Assembly (NCBI GenBank): GCA_035718275.1
Contig: DASTHI010000046.1
Coordinates: 54,348-118,347, forward strand
DNA: 64,000 nt
Direction: 5' to 3'
DNA from: Pseudolabrys sp.
GTDB lineage: Bacteria; Pseudomonadota; Alphaproteobacteria; Rhizobiales; Xanthobacteraceae
Shown here: piece after piece, positions 40,518-50,217 of the stretch
How positions within the stretch are numbered: position 1 is the stretch's first letter
Layout: each line of letters opens with the position of its first letter
Notes under the pieces: model-generated
What the model saw: the letters and a program-made list of their open reading frames with translations, nothing else
Databases searched by the model: none
What the model was told of the DNA's origin: nothing
Translations under genes and position numbers: made by a program

Positions 40518-41219
40518 ATGCACTTTTCCGGCAAGCATGTGGTCATCACCGGCGGCACGGGTGCGCTAGGCACTGCCGTCGTCAATGCGCTGGTTGGCGC
40601 GGGGGCGCTTTGCACCGTACCATACGTGCACGAAGACAGTGCTCGGACCTCGATGCTTCGGGATCAGCCCAATGTAAAGCTGGTCAAGATCGGCAGCCTT
40701 GCCGACGAAGGTGACGTGGCGAAGGTGTACTCGCCATCATCGTTGCCGCTTTGGGCTTCGATCCACATTGCCGGCGGTTTCGCGGCAGGCAAAATTACCG
40801 AGATCGATAAGCACGCCCTGATGGCGCAGATCGACACCAATCTCACCTCGTGCTTTCTCTGTTGCCGGGCCGCAGTGAGATCGATGGTTGGGAAAGAAGG
40901 CGGCCGTATCGTCAATGTGGCCGCTCGCCCCGCGCTCGAATGGCGAAATGGAGCCGGAATGACGGCCTACGCCGTGGCCAAGGCCGGCGTGGCAGCTCTC
41001 ACCGCCGCGCTCGCCCAAGAAGTCGCGACCAACCATATCCTTGTCAACGCGGTGGCGCCATCGATCATGGATACTCCGGCCAATCGGAGCGCGATGCCTA
41101 AGGCGAATTACGACGCGTGGCCAAAAGTCGACGAGGTCGCCACAACAATCCTGTTTCTCGCATCGCCGGACAACAAGGTCACGCGCGGCGCAGTCGTTCC
41201 GGTTTACGGCAGATCATAG
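40518..41219 (+). CDS. SDR family oxidoreductase
   Basis: TGGTGALG, YAVAK (YxxxK), NAVAPSIMDT. Confidence 0.92.
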   Translation: MHFSGKHVVITGGTGALGTAVVNALVGAGALCTVPYVHEDSARTSMLRDQPNVKLVKIGSLADEGDVAKVYSPSSLPLWASIHIAGGFAAGKITEIDKHALMAQIDTNLTSCFLCCRAAVRSMVGKEGGRIVNVAARPALEWRNGAGMTAYAVAKAGVAALTAALAQEVATNHILVNAVAPSIMDTPANRSAMPKANYDAWPKVDEVATTILFLASPDNKVTRGAVVPVYGRS

Positions 41220-41230
41220 CCTCCGCCGGG

Positions 41231-42589
41231 TCAGCCCGCGATCGGCACCAATTCGAGCGGCGGTCGAAGCAGTCGCTGTACTGCGTTGGAGGCAACGACC
41301 GTCCGCCCTTCCGCGTAGGCTTCATGATTCTTTTCGATCTCAGCCGGATCGTAAAGGTAATTCACCATCAGTCCGTATGCCTGACTCATGGCGCGTTCGG
41401 AAGTATCAGCCAGCCAATTGATGCGCTCAAGTCGGGCGCCGTTTCCGAGATGGAAGCGGGCCACTGGGTCAATCGGCAGGCCGCGCTCGTTGCGCACGCG
41501 GAGGAAGTAGCATGCTGCGGCCCGCATCACTGCATCCCGCAATGGCCCGACCGACTCCTCCTCGCGCCACCACTCCGGCTGGTCGAGCGCGGACAGAACG
41601 GCTTTGTCAGTATCGGTGAGCACGGTCGACGTTTCGGCGGAGCGCTCGCGCTTCAGCCATGTGGCAAAACCAGGCACTGGCGACAGCGTGACGAAAGTGG
41701 ACAGGGTCGGTATTTCGCGACTCACTTCCTCCACAACCTGCTTGATCAGGAAATTCCCGAACGACACGCCGGCAAGACCTCGCTGGCAATTCGAGATCGA
41801 ATAAAAGGTTGCCGTTCGCCTTTTATCGGCTTCGGTCGTCTCGCGATTTTTCGCCAGGATCGGCATGATGGCACCGGGAATATCGCGAGTCAGCGCCACT
41901 TCAACGAATATCAACGGCTCGTCCACGAGTGCCGGATGAAAGAAGGCGTAGCACCGGCGATCAGGCGGATCGATGCGGCGACGAAGATCGTCCCAGTCAT
42001 GAATTTCGTGCACGGCTTCGTAGCGGATGATCTTCTCCAGCACGATGGCTGGTGTGGACCAGTCGATCCTGCGCAGAACGAGAAAACCGCGATTAAACCA
42101 TGATGAAAACAGGTGCACGAAATCGGCGTCGACTGCACGCAGATCGCTCCGGTGATCGAGAGAGTCCATCACCTGCTCGCGCATCCGCACCAGCGCTGCA
42201 GTACCTCCGGGTGCAAGGTTCAGGCGGCGGAAGAGTTCCTGACGACGCGGCTCGGAAGCTGCGTGCACTTCGGCAGCAGCCGTTTCGGAAGGATTGGCGC
42301 GCCATGATTCGATCGCGCGTTCCAGGCGCGCGGCGTCGATACCAAATCGCTGCGCCAGGGCTTCGAAAAAAGCGATGCGCGGCCCTGTCGTCAGCGACGC
42401 ATAACGGGTCAGAATCTCACGTGCCAGAGCCACGCCCGAGGCTTCACCTCGGCCGGACAGCAGATCTTCGCATAACTCGACCAGGCTTTCGGAACGGGCC
42501 GATGCCTCCCCCCTTCTGTCCCGGGCAAGCAAGGCACGACCGCGATCGGAAATCGCCTGCAGCAGCTCTCCCAAAAATGAGGTGTTCAT
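41231..42589 (-). CDS. matA: Malonyl-CoA decarboxylase
   Basis: HLFSSWFNRGFL, YEAVH, DRRCYAFFHP, FYSISNCQ.GL.GVSFGNFLIK, TLSP, DPVARFHL.NGA, MVNY.Y. Confidence 0.95.
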   Translation of the reverse strand: MNTSFLGELLQAISDRGRALLARDRRGEASARSESLVELCEDLLSGRGEASGVALAREILTRYASLTTGPRIAFFEALAQRFGIDAARLERAIESWRANPSETAAAEVHAASEPRRQELFRRLNLAPGGTAALVRMREQVMDSLDHRSDLRAVDADFVHLFSSWFNRGFLVLRRIDWSTPAIVLEKIIRYEAVHEIHDWDDLRRRIDPPDRRCYAFFHPALVDEPLIFVEVALTRDIPGAIMPILAKNRETTEADKRRTATFYSISNCQRGLAGVSFGNFLIKQVVEEVSREIPTLSTFVTLSPVPGFATWLKRERSAETSTVLTDTDKAVLSALDQPEWWREEESVGPLRDAVMRAAACYFLRVRNERGLPIDPVARFHLGNGARLERINWLADTSERAMSQAYGLMVNYLYDPAEIEKNHEAYAEGRTVVASNAVQRLLRPPLELVPIAG

Positions 42590-43911
42590 CTCGACCCTGG
42601 CGCAACGCCCATGAGATAGTTCGGCAGCCATGTGGCGATTTCGGGAAAGATACACAAGATCACGATCGCCAGCATCATGCAGATCACATAGGGTAAAGTG
42701 CCCCACATCACCTTGGCGAGAGGCACGTCCGGCGCGATTGCGTTAACGATATATATGTTTAACCCCACCGGCGGATGTATGAGCCCGATTTCCATATTGA
42801 TGGTCAGGATCACTCCGAACCAAACCGGGTCAAATCCCGCCGCAGTTATGATCGGCAACAGGATCGGGCTGGTCATCAGGATGATGGCGGCCGGTGGAAT
42901 GAAAAACCCGCATACCAGCAAGAAGATGTTGATGAGGAACATCAGGGCCCATTTGTTGGCGTGCATGTCGGCGATCGCCTGCGCCAGCGTTTGGGTGAGA
43001 TAAAGAGAGGTGAGCATGTACCCGAACAGGACGGCCGTCGCGATGATGGTCAGGATCATCACGGATTCGCGCATCGTATCGCGCAGAATCAGCCAGACCT
43101 GTTCCGCCTTCCAAAGGCGATAGATCAGAATCGCCAGAAAGAGACATAAAGCCGCGCCCACGCCGGCCGCTTCCGACGGTGTCGTAACGCCGCCGTACAA
43201 TGCATACATCACGCCAACAATGATGAAGACGAATGGTGCGATCTTCGGCACCGATTGGAATTTTTCCTTCCAAGTGTAGCGAAAATCGATGGCGTGCGAG
43301 CGGAACCCGCGCTTCCAGATGATGAATATCGTCCACAATATGAACATGCCCGTCAGCATGAGGCCGGGCATCACGCCGGCGATAAATAACCGTCCGATCG
43401 AGGTTTCGGTCGCGATTCCATAAAGGATGAAGGTAACCGACGGCGGGATCAGAATGCCGAGGGTGCCGCCTGCGCAGATTGAGCCCGTGGCCACATCGTC
43501 GGGGTAGCCGCGACGCCGCATTTCAGGAATTCCCATCTTGCCGATGGCGGCGCAGCAGGCCGGCGAGGATCCGGTGAGCGCGGCGAAAATGGCGCACGCG
43601 CCGATGTTGGAAATGACCAGACCGCCAGGCAGGCGATAAAGCCAGCGGTCGAGTGCCTCGTAGAGATCCTTCCCGGCAGGAGACGAGCCGATGGCCGCAC
43701 CCATCATCACGAACATGGGGATGGCGACGAGCGTGAACTCATCGAGCCCCGACCAGAACGTCTCCGCGACGACATTGAGCGAGTCGAATCCCTGAAACAG
43801 AACCAGGAAAGCGATCGCAATCGCGCCAAGGCCGAAGGCGACCGGTATTCCGGATATCAGCATCAGGAGGGTCACAACGAGGACGATCCCCCCTTGGGTG
43901 GTGGGCGTCAT
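42586..43911 (-). CDS. TRAP transporter large permease (DctM; MatM-like)
   Basis: AIPMFVMMG, GTLGILIPPS, HPPVG. Stop overlaps the matA start. Confidence 0.93.
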   Translation of the reverse strand: MTPTTQGGIVLVVTLLMLISGIPVAFGLGAIAIAFLVLFQGFDSLNVVAETFWSGLDEFTLVAIPMFVMMGAAIGSSPAGKDLYEALDRWLYRLPGGLVISNIGACAIFAALTGSSPACCAAIGKMGIPEMRRRGYPDDVATGSICAGGTLGILIPPSVTFILYGIATETSIGRLFIAGVMPGLMLTGMFILWTIFIIWKRGFRSHAIDFRYTWKEKFQSVPKIAPFVFIIVGVMYALYGGVTTPSEAAGVGAALCLFLAILIYRLWKAEQVWLILRDTMRESVMILTIIATAVLFGYMLTSLYLTQTLAQAIADMHANKWALMFLINIFLLVCGFFIPPAAIILMTSPILLPIITAAGFDPVWFGVILTINMEIGLIHPPVGLNIYIVNAIAPDVPLAKVMWGTLPYVICMMLAIVILCIFPEIATWLPNYLMGVAPGSR

Positions 43912-44474
43912 GGCGCATCACCCAGAGCTTCGCGGGCGAGTGCGCGCGCTACTTCTTCCGCGTCCTGCTGGTCTCGAATCCCGAATGGCGCCGCCCGTCC
44001 TGTCAGCAAGGCGAGCGTCTCAGCCACATATTGCAGGAGGAGCAATCCGAGTCCGACCGGCATTGAAAGATAGGGAATCCAAAGCCGTGCGCGCCACACG
44101 GTGTTTGAAAGCCAGTTATTGGAATAGGCCTCGTACCAGTAGGCAGTACAGAGAACGAAAATCACCAGACAGAATGCGAGCGCCAGCAAGTTGGTGCCAA
44201 GAGCAAGCCAGAAGCGAAAGCGCGGCCCGGCGTGCAACGGCAGAATGTCCACATTGACGTGTCCGCGCGTCATGAGGACGTAGGCGCTGCCCACGAAAGT
44301 TGCTCCGACAATGCAGTAGGTGACAACGTCGATCTGCCAGATCGTCGTAAGGTTCAGGATATAACGCTCCACGACGATGTCGCAGATCACTAAAACGGCG
44401 ATGGCAATGAGAAATGCCGCAACCACACCGGCGACTTGCGACAGAAAGGTCACAGCCCGAATGTAGATATCCAT
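43908..44474 (-). CDS. TRAP transporter small permease (DctQ; MatQ-like)
   Basis: Four TM segments, RGHVNVD motif. Confidence 0.92.
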   Translation of the reverse strand: MDIYIRAVTFLSQVAGVVAAFLIAIAVLVICDIVVERYILNLTTIWQIDVVTYCIVGATFVGSAYVLMTRGHVNVDILPLHAGPRFRFWLALGTNLLALAFCLVIFVLCTAYWYEAYSNNWLSNTVWRARLWIPYLSMPVGLGLLLLQYVAETLALLTGRAAPFGIRDQQDAEEVARALAREALGDAP

Positions 44475-44572
44475 GGGCCTATCGTTTTTGTTTTCCGAAG
44501 AAATGCGCGCATCGCAATGCGCGGTGGAATGGCAGGCCGGCGAGCCGCGGGCCCGCCGGCCGCGTTGTTTGG

Positions 44573-45568
44573 CTATTTCACTGCAAGCGCTTCATCGATC
44601 AGTTTCTGCCCGTTGGGCACTTCCTTGGCGAACTTGGCGTAGGAACTCTTCTTCGCCACTTCGAGCCATGCCTTGTAATCATCGTCAGAGAGCGTGACGA
44701 CCTTGACCTTGTGGTCCTCGAAAGCCTTGATGGATTCCTGGTTTACGGCTTCTGCCTTACCTTCATAGTAGGCCTGCGCTTTCTTGCCGGCCGCAATCAG
44801 GGCATCCTTCTGCTGCTTGCTCAGCTTGTCGAAGCTCTTCTTCGACATAAGCACCGGCTCGTACATGAACCACAGGGCATTGTTGCCCGGCGCAGTAAGG
44901 CAGTCGGTCACCTCATACAGCCGCATCGACTGGAACGTGCCAAGGCTCGTATCGGTGCCGTTCACGACACCGCTCTGGAACGCATTGTAGATTTCGTTCG
45001 ATGGCGGGCTGACAATGCTTGCACCAGCGGTTTCCCACATTCCCGCAAACGTCGGACCAGCGGAACGGAATTTTCGCCCTTTCATGTCCTCGGGCTTCAC
45101 GATGCAACCACCCTTGGCTGCCATCCCGCCGGCGAACCAGGCGTCGGAGAGCACGATGACGCCGTGCTTTTCGATTTCGGCGCGTATGTCCTTCATGAAT
45201 TGCGAATCGTTGACCCGCTTCGCGCGTTCCTGACTCCGGATCAATCCCGGCATCAGCGTGGCGCTGAAGGTACGCACCTTGCCGCTGGCGTAGTCGAGCG
45301 GAAACAGCGAGAGGTCGAGCTGGCCATTCACCATGGCGTTCCACTGATCGTTGGGCTTGAACAGCGAAGCGCCCGGATACACCTGGATGTCGAGACCGAC
45401 ATTGGCGGCCTTAACTTCCTTCGCGATCATCTGCACCATGTCGTCGCGGACGTCCCCCTTGCCGCCCGGGAACTGGTGGGATGCCTTCATCGTAACCTGC
45501 GCGTGCGCCGACGCCGAGAAAACGACGGCCGCAGCGGCACTGACAAGCAATATCGAGAGTCTTTTCAT
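44573..45568 (-). CDS. TRAP substrate-binding protein (DctP; MatP-like)
   Basis: Signal peptide, KASHQFP, PEDMKGRKFR, EIYNAFQSGVVNG. GGAGG SD before ATG 45568. Confidence 0.92.
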   Translation of the reverse strand: MKRLSILLVSAAAAVVFSASAHAQVTMKASHQFPGGKGDVRDDMVQMIAKEVKAANVGLDIQVYPGASLFKPNDQWNAMVNGQLDLSLFPLDYASGKVRTFSATLMPGLIRSQERAKRVNDSQFMKDIRAEIEKHGVIVLSDAWFAGGMAAKGGCIVKPEDMKGRKFRSAGPTFAGMWETAGASIVSPPSNEIYNAFQSGVVNGTDTSLGTFQSMRLYEVTDCLTAPGNNALWFMYEPVLMSKKSFDKLSKQQKDALIAAGKKAQAYYEGKAEAVNQESIKAFEDHKVKVVTLSDDDYKAWLEVAKKSSYAKFAKEVPNGQKLIDEALAVK

Positions 45569-45815
45569 CGTGTAGTCCTCCATGGGGTTCTTTTTCCGGC
45601 AAATGCCGCCGCCTCTGATCGGCGCCGAAACAATAGCCAAAATTTTCCCCTTGCACGCAACTTCACATTACCCGCCGAGCTGGCCAAGCACCATAGGTCC
45701 GACGGCAAAAGGCCGCCATAACCTTCGATAACAAAATGGAAATTGCCTCTATAGTCAGTTTACCTTGATGCCTCTATAAAACCCCGCATTACGCTCTTCC
45801 TTGGAGTCTTCTCAC

Positions 45816-46985
45816 ATGCCGAAGCCATTGGCGGGCCTCCGCGTCCTCGAACTTGCCCGCATCCTTGCTGGTCCCTGGGCTGGTCAAATCCTCGCCGACC
45901 TCGGTGCCGACGTCATCAAAGTCGAGCGCAAAGGATCGGGAGACGACACGCGCGTCTGGGGACCGCCCTTCGTGGAGGGTATCGACGGCAGCCACATCGG
46001 TTCGGCCTATTTTCATGCGGCGAACCGGGGTAAACGGTCGATAGAGCTCGACTTTGAAGGCGCTGACGGCCAGCGCATCGTTCGCAAGCTCGCATCGCGT
46101 TCGGACGTGCTGATTGAAAATTTCAAGGTCGGCGGGCTGTCCAAATTCGGACTGGACTACAAGAGCATCGCGCCTGATTGCCCCAGACTGATCTATTGCT
46201 CAGTGACCGGTTTCGGTCAGGACGGTCCCTATGCCAAGCGCGCCGGCTACGATCTCATGGCGCAGGGGATGGGAGGCATCATGGATTTGACCGGAATGCC
46301 CGACGGCGAGCCGACTCGCATTGGCATCCCGGTTTCCGATATTTTCACCGGCGTCTATTCGGTAGTCGGGATTCTCGCCGCGCTGGCGCAGCGCGAGAAG
46401 ACAGGCAAGGGCTGCTATGTCGATACGGCACTCGTCGATTCGACGGTTGGCGTTCTTTCCAACCAAGCCATGAACTATCTCGTTTCTGGAAATGTGCCGA
46501 AGCGCATCGGAAACGCGCACGCAAACATCGTCCCCTACCAGGTATTCCCTGTTGCCGATGGTCACGTGATCGTCGCAACAGGCAACGACAATCAGTATGT
46601 GAAGTTCTGCAACGTCCTTGGCGCTCCCGAGCTGGCGCAGAATCCCGCCTACAAAGATAACGTCGGCAGGCTCAAGCATCGCGAGGAGCTGGTGGGGAAA
46701 CTGTCGCGATTGACTGCGCAGATGAAGCGCGGCGAGCTGCTCGAAAAGCTCGAAATGCAGCAGGTGCCGGCAGGTCCGATCAACGACCTGCAGCAAGTCT
46801 TCAATGATCCGCAGGTGATCCACCGGGGCATGAAGCTCTCGCTCAGGAGTCGAGCCGCCAAAGGGGGCTCGATCCCAGGCGTGCGGACGCCGATCGTCAT
46901 CGACGGCTGGAAGGCGGCATCAGAGAATCCCGCTCCATTGCTCGGTGAGCACACCGCCGAAATCCTGCGCGAGATCGGGGAATGA
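45816..46985 (+). CDS. Family III (CaiB/BaiF) CoA-transferase
   Basis: LAGLRVLEL...LAGPW..Q.LADLGADVIKVE, GDDTR, NRGKRS, ENFK, GYDL, SDIFTG, GNAH. Confidence 0.93.
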   Translation: MPKPLAGLRVLELARILAGPWAGQILADLGADVIKVERKGSGDDTRVWGPPFVEGIDGSHIGSAYFHAANRGKRSIELDFEGADGQRIVRKLASRSDVLIENFKVGGLSKFGLDYKSIAPDCPRLIYCSVTGFGQDGPYAKRAGYDLMAQGMGGIMDLTGMPDGEPTRIGIPVSDIFTGVYSVVGILAALAQREKTGKGCYVDTALVDSTVGVLSNQAMNYLVSGNVPKRIGNAHANIVPYQVFPVADGHVIVATGNDNQYVKFCNVLGAPELAQNPAYKDNVGRLKHREELVGKLSRLTAQMKRGELLEKLEMQQVPAGPINDLQQVFNDPQVIHRGMKLSLRSRAAKGGSIPGVRTPIVIDGWKAASENPAPLLGEHTAEILREIGE

Positions 46986-46998
46986 TCGGCGCCTGACG

Positions 46999-48702
46999 TC
47001 AAGTCACCGCGGTCGGCGCAAGCTCTTCGATGTCGGTCACGATATCCAGGACTGCGGGGCGCTTGGCCGCCACCGCGCTGGCAAGCGCTGGGGCGATGTC
47101 GATGGGTTTTTCGACCCGGATGCCGAGAGCGCCCATGTCCTCTGCCAGTCTGGCGAAATCCATTTTGTTGTAGGTCCACAGTTCGCGCGCCTTAGCCGTC
47201 TGTTCACCGCCATATGCGCGATCGAACCCGCGCTTGGATTGGTTGCCGCCGCCGTTATTGTTGACGATAGTCACGGACGCGATGTTCCAGCGGACGGCCG
47301 TTTCGACTTCTGCGATGTGATACCAGAAGCCGGCATCGCCAGTGAAAACGACGACGGGACGATCCGGACACGCCGCCTTTGCCCCGATGCCGGCGGGAAA
47401 GGCCCACCCAAGATGTCCGGCGCTGCGCATGTAGCTCTGTGAGGGCGTACGAAGGTCGTACATGCCGCCCATCCACATCCCCGCATGGCCGGTGTCGGCC
47501 ACCACGATCGCGTCATCGGGCATATGCTTCGTCAATTCGCTGCAAATGCGTGCCGGATGAATTGGGATATTGTCGGATTCGAGCATGGCCCGGTATTTCG
47601 CATACCACTCGGTGCGCAACGCGGTGACTTCCCGGATCCAGGCGGCACGTCTCGCGGCGGTCGACTTGTCGATCTGCCCCAGCATCCGCACAAGGACGTT
47701 CTTCGCATCGCCCAGCACGCTTGCTTGCAGCGGATAGTTTCGCCCCAGCGCCTCGGGGTCGATATCGATCTGAATCGCCGGCGTGCCGATAGGCGGAACG
47801 GCCCAGAAATGCGTCGTCATGCCGCCTGTCTCGGTGCCGATGAAGCAGACGAGGTCCGCCGTGTTGACGGCCCGGTTGGCGCATTCACGTGAATAAGTGC
47901 CGACAACTCCCACCGACAGCGCGTGTGTGCCGGGTATCACGTCCTTGCCGTTGAGCGAGGTTGCAACCGGTATCTGGAGCGCTTCAGCAAGCGCGACGAG
48001 TTCCTTTCCCGCGCCTGATATGCGAGCACCTCCACCGGCAACGATGATCGGCCGCTGCGACCTCTGCAGCAATTCGAGTGCCGCCTTCACATGCGCCGCT
48101 TCGGGCTCCGGCCGGAACGGCGGAATGCGGGAGAATTGCGGCTCGACGAGCGGCTCCATCTCCGCCTCCTCAATGTCGATTTGGCCTTCGTTGCCGCGAA
48201 ACTGGAGGTGGACCGGGCCCGGCGCGCCGGTTGTTGCCGTGCGAAATGCCTGACGCAGCATGTCCGGAATACGAGAGACGTCGTCGACGGTCACATTCAA
48301 CTTGGTGACAGGCTCGAATGCCGGAATGTCGTCGACCTCCTGGTACACTCTTCGAAACTTCGTTTTCGGATCGCGCCCCCCCGTCATCGCGATCACCGGA
48401 GAATGAGCAAGACAGGCGTCGCGCAGCCCGGCGGCAAGATTGAGAGCACCGATCACCTGCGCCATGCACACGCCGGGCTTTCCTGACGCTCGAGCGTAGC
48501 CGTCAGCCATGTACGCCGCCGATTTTTCGCCATGGCAATGCACGCGCGCTATTGCGGTTCGCCGTTCCATTTCAGCGAAGGTGCGTCGCAACACGGCCGG
48601 CACCATGAACACGTGCGTGACCCCGTAACCCGCCAGCATGTCGGCAAGAACTTCAGCGCCGGTACGTTTCGTATTGTGTCCGATCGCGGGCATACTGCTC
48701 AT
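46999..48702 (-). CDS. Thiamine diphosphate-dependent enzyme (acetolactate synthase-like family)
   Basis: HGEKSAAYMADGYAR, TGDAGF...NN ThDP motif, PAVLDIV. Confidence 0.9.
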   Translation of the reverse strand: MSSMPAIGHNTKRTGAEVLADMLAGYGVTHVFMVPAVLRRTFAEMERRTAIARVHCHGEKSAAYMADGYARASGKPGVCMAQVIGALNLAAGLRDACLAHSPVIAMTGGRDPKTKFRRVYQEVDDIPAFEPVTKLNVTVDDVSRIPDMLRQAFRTATTGAPGPVHLQFRGNEGQIDIEEAEMEPLVEPQFSRIPPFRPEPEAAHVKAALELLQRSQRPIIVAGGGARISGAGKELVALAEALQIPVATSLNGKDVIPGTHALSVGVVGTYSRECANRAVNTADLVCFIGTETGGMTTHFWAVPPIGTPAIQIDIDPEALGRNYPLQASVLGDAKNVLVRMLGQIDKSTAARRAAWIREVTALRTEWYAKYRAMLESDNIPIHPARICSELTKHMPDDAIVVADTGHAGMWMGGMYDLRTPSQSYMRSAGHLGWAFPAGIGAKAACPDRPVVVFTGDAGFWYHIAEVETAVRWNIASVTIVNNNGGGNQSKRGFDRAYGGEQTAKARELWTYNKMDFARLAEDMGALGIRVEKPIDIAPALASAVAAKRPAVLDIVTDIEELAPTAVT

Positions 48703-49097
48703 GCGGGGTCGAACTTCAGTGCGACGCCGTTTATGCAGTAGCGCAGATGCGTGGGTGGAGGCCCGTCGTCGAAGACGTGTCCGAGGTGGCTTCCGCAGCG
48801 GCTGCAGTGGACTTCGTCGCGGACCATGCCGTGCCTGCGGTCGGATTCCGTTTCAAGCGCGCCGGGGATCGGATCGTTGAAGCTGGGCCAGCCGGTGCCA
48901 CTCTCAAACTTCGTTTTCGACACGAACAGCGGCTGGTCGCACGCGGCGCATCGAAACGTGCCCGCCCGCTTCTCGGCCAGCAACGCACAGCTCCCCGGCA
49001 TCTCCGTCCCATGCTCGCGCATGATCTTGTACTGCTCGGGTGTAAGCAGTTTGCGCCATTCGGCTTCTGTGTGGGAGACGGGGTATTCCATGGCCAT
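48699..49097 (-). CDS. msrB: Peptide-methionine (R)-S-oxide reductase
   Basis: GTE, CxxC zinc pairs, GTGWPSF, HLGHVF.DGP, RYCIN. Confidence 0.96.
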   Translation of the reverse strand: MAMEYPVSHTEAEWRKLLTPEQYKIMREHGTEMPGSCALLAEKRAGTFRCAACDQPLFVSKTKFESGTGWPSFNDPIPGALETESDRRHGMVRDEVHCSRCGSHLGHVFDDGPPPTHLRYCINGVALKFDPA

Positions 49098-49126
49098 GGT
49101 TTCATTACTCCAGCGCGTGGATTGCG

Positions 49127-50095
49127 CTACTTGATTGCCAGTGGATTCACCGGTGAGCCGACGGCGCCGGTGATTGGTAACGCGGGCGCGACAAAGAGAA
49201 ATTCATACACTTTGTCCTGCTCGCAATCATCAGCGAGCTCCTTGACCTGAAAGATCTCGCCCATGGTCATTCCCATGATCGGGATCGTAATCCAGTGCCA
49301 AGGCTGATTGATGCCCTCTTCGCTTTCGTTGGGCCTCACCTCGCAGCCCCAGGTATCGCTGGCAAGTGCCGCGAGTTGTGTTTCCTTCACGAAATCGAGG
49401 GTCTCGAATGAGAAGCCCGGTGCATCCCCACCCGGATAGCCATCCCAGCTTCCTGCCTTCTGGCAGCGCTCCATCATGCCTGTCCGCACGATAACGTAAT
49501 CACCGCGCTTGAGCTCGACCTTCTGCTTCCTCGCCGTCCCGTACAGATCGTCGTTGGTGATGCCATATCCGTCCGCGAGCGACTCGACACCCTTGTAGCG
49601 TGCCACGTCGAGAAAAACGCCGCGGCCCACCATTTTGTTCTTCGTCTTTTCGATGCCGCACTTCTGAGCGCCGGCGCTTGTCACTTCGCGGCAATCGTAG
49701 CCATTCCACATGTAGTTTTCATAGAACACATGTCCAAGGCCATCCCACTGCGTACCGCATTGGAGCGGCATTGTGACCATGTCATCGGCGGCGCGGATGC
49801 CGCGCTTGTCCAGAACTCCCGAATAAGCGTCGGTGCCGGTACGCAGCATGGTGTGAATGGGATTGGTCCGCCCCATCGCCGGGTATTTGCTTTTCGCGCC
49901 TTGCGGTCCCGTATGGTCAAAATTGAGCGCGAGCGAGATGACCTTTCCTTTCTTCACCAGGCGGGTGGCAGCAACGATATCTTCCGCCGTGGTGTAATTG
50001 AGGGTGCCGATTTCATCGTCGGGTCCCCATTTGCCCCAATTCTTGTACTTCTCCGCTGCGTCCCGAATGTCCTGGCGGGTGATCTTGCGAATCAT
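49127..50095 (-). CDS. Cyclase family metal-dependent hydrolase (kynurenine formamidase-like)
   Basis: NWGKWGPDDEIGTLN, QCGTQWDGLGH, GRGVFLDV, GD.VIVRTG, GEIF, GSPVNPLAI. ATG 50095. Confidence 0.9.
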   Translation of the reverse strand: MIRKITRQDIRDAAEKYKNWGKWGPDDEIGTLNYTTAEDIVAATRLVKKGKVISLALNFDHTGPQGAKSKYPAMGRTNPIHTMLRTGTDAYSGVLDKRGIRAADDMVTMPLQCGTQWDGLGHVFYENYMWNGYDCREVTSAGAQKCGIEKTKNKMVGRGVFLDVARYKGVESLADGYGITNDDLYGTARKQKVELKRGDYVIVRTGMMERCQKAGSWDGYPGGDAPGFSFETLDFVKETQLAALASDTWGCEVRPNESEEGINQPWHWITIPIMGMTMGEIFQVKELADDCEQDKVYEFLFVAPALPITGAVGSPVNPLAIK

Positions 50096-50217
50096 TGAAT
50101 TTCCTCTGACGAAAATGACGGAGAAGATCGGCGAATACACCCTGCGGACAGCGCTGACGCAAGCCCTACTGGCGCCGCTCTTGTGCAATGCTACGATGTG
50201 GAAAACGGGAGGCATTC

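Follow-up and report, generated by a model that had tools for sequence, protein, structure and literature searches.

We analysed a 64,000-nucleotide stretch of DNA from Pseudolabrys sp. (Xanthobacteraceae; contig DASTHI010000046.1, positions 54,348 to 118,347), hereafter called the window, in which genes for a TRAP transporter and a malonyl-CoA decarboxylase (MCD), matPQM-matA, stand divergent from the gene of a family III (CaiB/BaiF) CoA-transferase. The genome does not encode the malonyl-CoA synthetase MatB. Judging from gene content and phylogeny, we give an even chance to the proposal that the locus is a malonate-utilisation module of Pseudolabrys in which the divergent transferase would make malonyl-CoA. 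Malonate, an acid common in plants and soil, inhibits respiration. In textbooks its breakdown is assigned either to MatB and MatA or to the Mdc complex. The mat system of Sinorhizobium and Rhizobium comprises the TRAP importer MatPQM, the decarboxylase MatA, the malonyl-CoA synthetase MatB and the GntR regulator MatR. Genes in the window were called with Pfam and NCBIfam profiles:

41231-42589, minus strand: matA, MCD, 452 amino acids (PF17408, 2e-30; PF05292, 1.5e-107)
42586-43911, minus strand: matM, TRAP large permease (PF06808, 1e-96; TIGR00786, 370 bits, over the cut-off)
43908-44474, minus strand: matQ, TRAP small permease (PF04290, 5e-22)
44573-45568, minus strand: matP, TRAP solute-binding protein, 331 amino acids from the ATG at 45568 (PF03480, 2e-44)
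45569-45815: divergent intergenic region between matP and the CoA-transferase gene, 247 bp, read from the sequence
45816-46985, plus strand: family III (CaiB/BaiF) CoA-transferase of the SUGCT/CaiB-like clade, 389 amino acids (PF02515)
40518-41219, plus strand: short-chain dehydrogenase/reductase (SDR) gene, convergent with matA (PF00106, 5e-28)

A mat operon that ends at matA

The transporter was compared with its homologs in the order. Of 250 genomes, 50 had a homolog of the window DctP at 42-60% identity. More than 20 of these genomes, from many families, have the homolog immediately ahead of MCD and MatB, with the gene order matP-Q-M-A-B (e.g. L044, L055 and L056). Similarly, the window DctM shares 59-66% identity with DctM proteins encoded in other mat clusters. 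By synteny the TRAP system is thus a true MatPQM ortholog. Because its DctP homologs sit in matPQM-A-B clusters, the Pseudolabrys operon is the conserved mat operon, truncated behind matA. A different arrangement was seen in the MatB-less genome G063 (L050:7066-10943): there the matPQM ortholog is directly followed by a class II aldolase/adducin-family gene, and MCD is located on a separate small contig.

The genes of the operon are tightly packed. The ATG of matA at 42589 and the stop of matM (dctM) overlap as ATGA; therefore synthesis of the decarboxylase is coupled translationally to that of the transporter. The end of matQ and the start of matM overlap by 4 nucleotides. Between matP and matQ, which are 98 bp apart, a GC-rich stem-loop at 44506-44523 (minus strand) may determine how much binding protein is made relative to permease. 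The start codons were chosen within longer open frames. The MCD_N+MCD frame covers 41231-42706 (minus strand), with a likely start at the ATG at 42589; the DctP frame covers 44573-45640 (minus strand), with a likely start at 45568 preceded by GGAGGA; and the CoA_transf_3 domain lies at full length within the frame 45801-46985 (plus strand), in which the ATG at 45816 is preceded by GGAG. On rechecking, the coordinates given by an earlier reading made from the letters alone (the sequence-only reading) were right to within start-codon choice. It had also stated that the operon ends at matA, which converges on an SDR. This was borne out: the gap is 11 bp, and the SDR gene stands where matB would be expected. 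At the other flank, the 3' end of the transferase gene is 13 bp from the convergent gene of a thiamine diphosphate (ThDP) enzyme, whose operon with a cyclase and msrB occupies 46999-50215 (minus strand).

MatB is absent from the genome

The sequence-only reading had noted the lack of matB in the cluster, and a search of the whole genome agreed with it. The assembly is 99.83% complete. The best score against the malonyl-CoA synthase model NF005702 was 285 bits, with a curated cut-off of 558 bits, and tblastn with a genuine MatB of a relative returned at most 33% identity. We considered whether MatB is hidden among the AMP-ligases, as the genome encodes about 19 AMP-binding enzymes. The eight best candidates had their top matches to fatty-acid, benzoate or MTP-CoA ligase models, never to malonyl-CoA synthase. 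We conclude that matB is truly absent from the genome. Likewise, MatB over the cut-off was found in none of the 41 sampled Pseudolabrys genomes; the other members of the family that were sampled, seven genomes, all have it. MCD is encoded by 40 of the 41 genus genomes, and the MCD of matA is the sole one in the genome studied here. A match to MdcA (PF16957), the alpha subunit of the biotin-independent malonate decarboxylase, was not obtained in this genome.

The regulator is missing as well. A MatR-type GntR protein (GntR/FCD) was not detected in the window, on its contig or at the genus loci, which extends the earlier statement that no GntR MatR is adjacent. The best MatR-like match in the genome is 34% identical and encoded on another contig (C1).

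Since the MatPQM importer is kept and matA is coupled to matM, imported malonate would need an activating enzyme.

Linkage of the transferase and matA in the genus

Orthologs of the transferase, 74-90% identical, are encoded by 39 of the 41 genus genomes, the present one included. Both genes occur in 39 genomes. In 36 of them a single contig carries transferase and matA at a distance of 1.5-7.7 kb; in the remaining three they are on separate contigs of fragmented assemblies. The linked pairs include some at rearranged loci. G290 and G274 have lost the TRAP genes, and transferase and matA are directly divergent there. In G264 and G260 (L041:5836-12755 and L042) an Opp/Dpp-type ABC operon, divergent from matA, replaces the TRAP genes.

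Fusions of family III transferases to malonyl-CoA decarboxylase

Other mat operons that lack MatB also carry a family III transferase. In G236 and G001, MatB-less genomes of the order with a MatP ortholog, matP-Q-M is followed by one frame in which a family III transferase is fused to MCD_N+MCD; the fused frames encode 850 and about 900 amino acids. A contig scan with this transferase recovered the same fusion in three further Hyphomicrobiales metagenome-assembled genomes (MAGs) and separate adjacent genes in others. In the protein database, fused transferase-MCD proteins form at least 70 clusters, with automatic names only, e.g. 'CoA:oxalate CoA-transferase'. One of these proteins is encoded behind genes for DctP and a fused DctQM. 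Examples of these proteins, 840-960 amino acids long and usually encoded behind matPQM, are:

L049:7910-10462, plus strand: fused transferase-MCD, 850 amino acids
L053:952-3762, minus strand: fused transferase-MCD
L057, L058 and L059: fused transferase-MCD
L152:7001-9727: fused transferase-MCD

The Virgifigura locus mirrors the layout of the window, with matA-M-Q-P divergent from matR and a transferase gene. Clusters of the MatB type and of the transferase type have regulators of one and the same MatR family at their flanks. The mat-associated transferases are YfdE-like (best model NF008511, about 397 bits, below the cut-off of 522), 39-41% identical to the window enzyme and in a separate clade of the tree. 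The fusion is strong evidence for a family III transferase feeding MCD. The proposal of the sequence-only reading that such an enzyme replaces MatB is backed by these independent mat operons, where the transferase gene is either part of the operon or fused to matA. It was weakened for the window itself, where the enzyme is SUGCT-type and a role with glutarate only is also possible. A YfdE-like mat-type transferase elsewhere in the Pseudolabrys genome was sought and not found; the best match was the window gene itself, at 41%. A literature search returned no paper that describes family III enzymes in mat operons, links a gene of this family to the activation of malonate or reports the fused protein.

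As a side observation, a Sporomusaceae MAG and Anaerospora hongkongensis (L110 and L114) encode 56% identical homologs of the mat-associated YfdE-like transferase, and MCD was not present within 7 kb of them. For the Sporomusaceae, biochemical work has described a malonate decarboxylation that depends on CoA transfer.

Proposed pathway and its energetic cost

Substrate, donor and co-regulation are what we infer in the following scheme, alongside the observed gene content, transporter orthology, MatB absence and genus linkage. The locus would derive from an alphaproteobacterial matR-matPQM-matA-matB cluster from which matB and matR were lost. Malonate would be imported by MatPQM and converted to malonyl-CoA via CoA transfer by the divergent SUGCT/CaiB-type family III transferase, most likely from succinyl-CoA, possibly from acetyl-CoA. 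MatA would then decarboxylate malonyl-CoA to acetyl-CoA and CO2. Succinyl-CoA is the likelier donor because the transferase belongs to the SUGCT/CaiB clade and its closest relatives are in lysine-catabolic operons. The Agrobacterium CaiB accepts succinyl-CoA or acetyl-CoA as donor (PMC7645780).

The costs can be estimated from established biochemistry. With succinyl-CoA, activation would cost one thioester and acetyl-CoA would be gained, at about half the cost of MatB, which converts ATP to AMP and PPi. With acetyl-CoA, a catalytic cycle to acetate and CO2 would result, and assimilation would still need acetate activation. The sequence-only reading had proposed an ATP-free cycle with acetyl-CoA. 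The cycle would indeed be catalytic if acetyl-CoA were the donor; the likelier route with succinyl-CoA would be cheaper than MatB, not ATP-free. 'ATP-free' overstates the case because a succinyl-CoA donor spends one thioester and the acetate from the acetyl-CoA route needs activation.

Malonate, glutarate or neither

The transferase belongs to family III by its profile match, and the question is which acid it serves. It matched PF02515 over profile positions 1-366 of 366 (1.3e-125). The best NCBIfam model was that of succinate--glutarate CoA-transferase, NF052585, with 548.8 bits, below the equivalog cut-off of 750; relatives of the enzyme encoded in lysine operons are also under this cut-off (590-620 bits). 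The nearest solved structures are 4ED9, a Brucella CaiB/BaiF protein, and human SUGCT, 9BR6 (alignment 1e-102). The catalytic aspartate of family III enzymes is Asp169 in Frc and Asp212 in SUGCT. In the window enzyme it is D175; the 24 homologs in the alignment all have the conserved aspartate at this position, and D175 also lines up with the SDI/TDL motif of 9BR6 and 4ED9. Two putative specificity residues, Ser174 beside the catalytic aspartate and a threonine in the GN(D) loop, first looked genus-specific; since SUGCT has Thr and 4ED9 Cys at these places, nothing was concluded from them. In a maximum-likelihood tree the Pseudolabrys clade (100/100) falls inside a SUGCT-like group (97/97) together with G046, G069, G160, G143 and G139. 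In human SUGCT malonate competes in an in vitro assay, and the family is promiscuous for C3-C8 dicarboxylates (PMC10871334). The sequence-only reading, which knew of no description of its proposed cycle for a family III enzyme, was therefore too strong on this point, since human SUGCT interacts with malonate in vitro.

A number of observations weigh against malonate as the substrate of the window enzyme. The transferase nests among 60-65% identical proteins of other families with an ordinary stem branch length, and two of these relatives are placed in lysine-catabolic operons. In G046 (L143:4605-10756) the gene is co-transcribed with amaB (L-piperidine-6-carboxylate dehydrogenase), an acyl-CoA dehydrogenase gene and that of a PRK08199 ThDP protein; in G069 (L146:7619-10458) it is co-transcribed with a PRK08199 'thiamine pyrophosphate protein'. 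These gene contexts suggest that the PRK08199 ThDP family may act in lysine/2-oxoadipate catabolism. The Pseudolabrys genome keeps AmaB (797 bits, over the cut-off) and a PRK08199 ThDP protein, dispersed, and a second SUGCT-like transferase was not found in it; therefore a glutarate role could alone explain the gene. Outside the genus the window-type clade, defined at 45% identity or more, was never adjacent to MCD in 250 order-level and 400 class-level genomes, with the one exception of G127, in which a 49%-identical protein is encoded beside MCD and the genome has three MatB genes. The clade itself is common in the order and class genomes sampled. It occurred in 13 of 25 MCD-positive, MatB-negative genomes of the order and in 123 of 251 overall. 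Accordingly, the expected co-occurrence of matA with this CaiB clade in genomes lacking matB failed to appear: there was neither enrichment nor, outside the genus, a positional link. Linkage within one genus is one evolutionary event, and the SDR neighbour of matA is equally conserved there (66-70% identity). In G264 and G260 the ABC operon consists of a fused ATPase, a family 5 binding protein and two permeases, with the transferase last. The fusion found elsewhere does not show that the SUGCT-like Pseudolabrys enzyme feeds MCD. As to co-regulation, an operator common to the divergent regions was not recognised among five genus loci compared, these regions being too diverged. Finally, about 20 MatB-less Hyphomicrobiales genomes have a stand-alone MCD: neither a mat transporter nor MatB nor a family III transferase is encoded within 10 kb of it.

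We also looked for promoters. The promoter scan gave a single promoter-like site in the divergent region of the window, on the plus strand at 45728-45755; by chance alone as many would be expected. The only element that recurs in the five genus regions is a -10-like CTATAA/TTATAA before the transferase.

A transferase that serves glutarate only would fit many of these data. It would be the succinyl-CoA:glutarate CoA-transferase of the genus (CaiB/GcdG-like, lysine/glutarate catabolism), located beside matPQM-matA through descent and not because of its function, and malonate would be activated by another enzyme, e.g. an acyl-CoA synthetase of broad specificity or one of the five further family III transferases. 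The tree position and branch length, the relatives in amaB/acyl-CoA dehydrogenase/ThDP operons, the retained AmaB and PRK08199 protein in a genome with a single SUGCT-like transferase, and the lack of a link between clade and MCD in about 650 genomes outside the genus all speak for it, as do the SDR and ThDP-enzyme neighbours, likewise syntenic in the genus, and the number of AMP-binding enzymes. However, none of those ligases is MatB-like. The pairing of MCD and transferase outlasts three different locus rearrangements. At this similarity level the clade was not found in the Bradyrhizobium-like family members that keep MatB, which fits a gain in the lineage losing MatB, and analogous mat clusters use family III transferases in this very role. 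On balance we consider it rather unlikely that the enzyme serves glutarate only.

Several details bear on the glutarate question. As the genome has the lysine genes and no other SUGCT-like transferase, the enzyme probably retains the ancestral glutarate activity. The ThDP enzyme of the window was considered as a partner as in the transferase-ThDP operons of G046 and G069, and rejected: it is only 26% identical to the ThDP enzymes of those operons, convergent and a different gene. A need of BioZ for glutaryl-CoA was also considered; the second FabH-like gene lies within a lipid A cluster, and bioB stands alone. Among the five other family III genes one is a true Frc. This formyl-CoA transferase gene (C1:76252-77415, L140; 726 bits, over the cut-off) has the best MatR-like GntR gene about 3 kb away, and its surroundings are likely to form an oxalate module.

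Alternatively, matPQM-matA may be a remnant no longer used for growth on malonate, with no dedicated activator. The TRAP system would then import another dicarboxylate, or MatA would trim endogenous malonyl-CoA or detoxify traces of it. The stand-alone MCDs without MatB or mat transporters, two genus genomes which lost the TRAP genes and keep MCD, and the absence of MatR are in line with this. Bradyrhizobium-like genomes also have a stand-alone MCD, with MatB encoded elsewhere (the stand-alone set comprises L013-L031, L035-L037 and L045-L046). Because stand-alone MCD without MatB is frequent, MatB absence alone calls for no replacement; the retained importer does. The matP, matQ, matM and matA frames are intact and 71-86% identical at the compared genus locus L040, and MCD is free of stops in all genus carriers except the fragmented G283 and the split G271. 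Furthermore, the ATGA overlap ties import to decarboxylation, and MatP orthologs elsewhere are consistently found in mat clusters. A remnant thus appears improbable. Weighing all of the above, we consider the case for malonate activation by the transferase in vivo, read from genes and their neighbours, to be evenly balanced.

Possible consequences for malonate catabolism

EC 2.8.3.3 has no gene or sequence assigned in KEGG (PMC8307300). If malonate activation by CoA transfer holds true, the route would give genes to an EC 2.8.3.3-like activity known only biochemically and lower the energetic cost of malonate use. Pathway calls would change, since matA-positive, matB-negative genomes are now read as incomplete. 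In Pseudolabrys the enzyme taken over for malonate may have been a glutarate transferase of broad specificity. The fused transferase-decarboxylases appear to be attractive single-polypeptide candidates for a malonate decarboxylase, for biochemistry and for the engineering of malonyl-CoA supply. More broadly, two unrelated family III clades may independently have replaced MatB, a YfdE-like one and, in Pseudolabrys, a SUGCT-like one now serving malonate too, and these would be the first genes for EC 2.8.3.3-type activity; to this we give slightly less than an even chance.

Comparison with known systems

Like matPQMAB/matR of Sinorhizobium and Rhizobium, the Pseudolabrys locus has an orthologous transporter, MatA, the order matP-Q-M-A and tight coupling. 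Unlike them, it has neither MatB nor MatR, at the locus or in the genome, and a family III CoA-transferase stands divergent from matP. With the YfdE-like mat transferases it shares a mat cluster in which MatB is missing and a family III transferase is present, and with Virgifigura the divergent layout; however, those clusters keep MatR, which Pseudolabrys lacks, and the transferases are not orthologous. Compared with SUGCT, Agrobacterium CaiB (Atu2127) and Pseudomonas GcdG, the enzyme belongs to the same family III clade and has the conserved catalytic aspartate, yet its gene lies outside a lysine/glutarate operon, beside matPQM-matA, in a lineage without MatB. The Mdc system differs in that it acts on a prosthetic group of an acyl carrier protein, and MdcA is absent from the genome.

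MCD has a GNAT-like fold and is not a ThDP enzyme like oxalyl-CoA decarboxylase. Frc or YfdE, acting with oxalyl-CoA decarboxylase, belongs to the same superfamily as the window transferase, and there too CoA transfer activates a dicarboxylate, and a CoA thioester is regenerated when the product is decarboxylated (PMC3720670). In contrast, the substrate proposed here is C3 instead of C2, and the window transferase is outside the Frc/YfdE clade. The chemistry is precedented biochemically, with a close analogue in the oxalate pathway, and the gene-level route would be the new part. Dehning and Schink reportedly described malonate CoA-transferase (EC 2.8.3.3) together with MCD in Sporomusa malonica, Klebsiella oxytoca and Rhodobacter capsulatus in 1994; the cycle of CoA transfer and malonyl-CoA decarboxylation is said to have been shown biochemically, with no genes. 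This is a second reason why the novelty claim of the sequence-only reading was too strong. The chemistry proposed for Pseudolabrys would be the same, i.e. an acyl exchange followed by a decarboxylation which regenerates the acetyl thioester.

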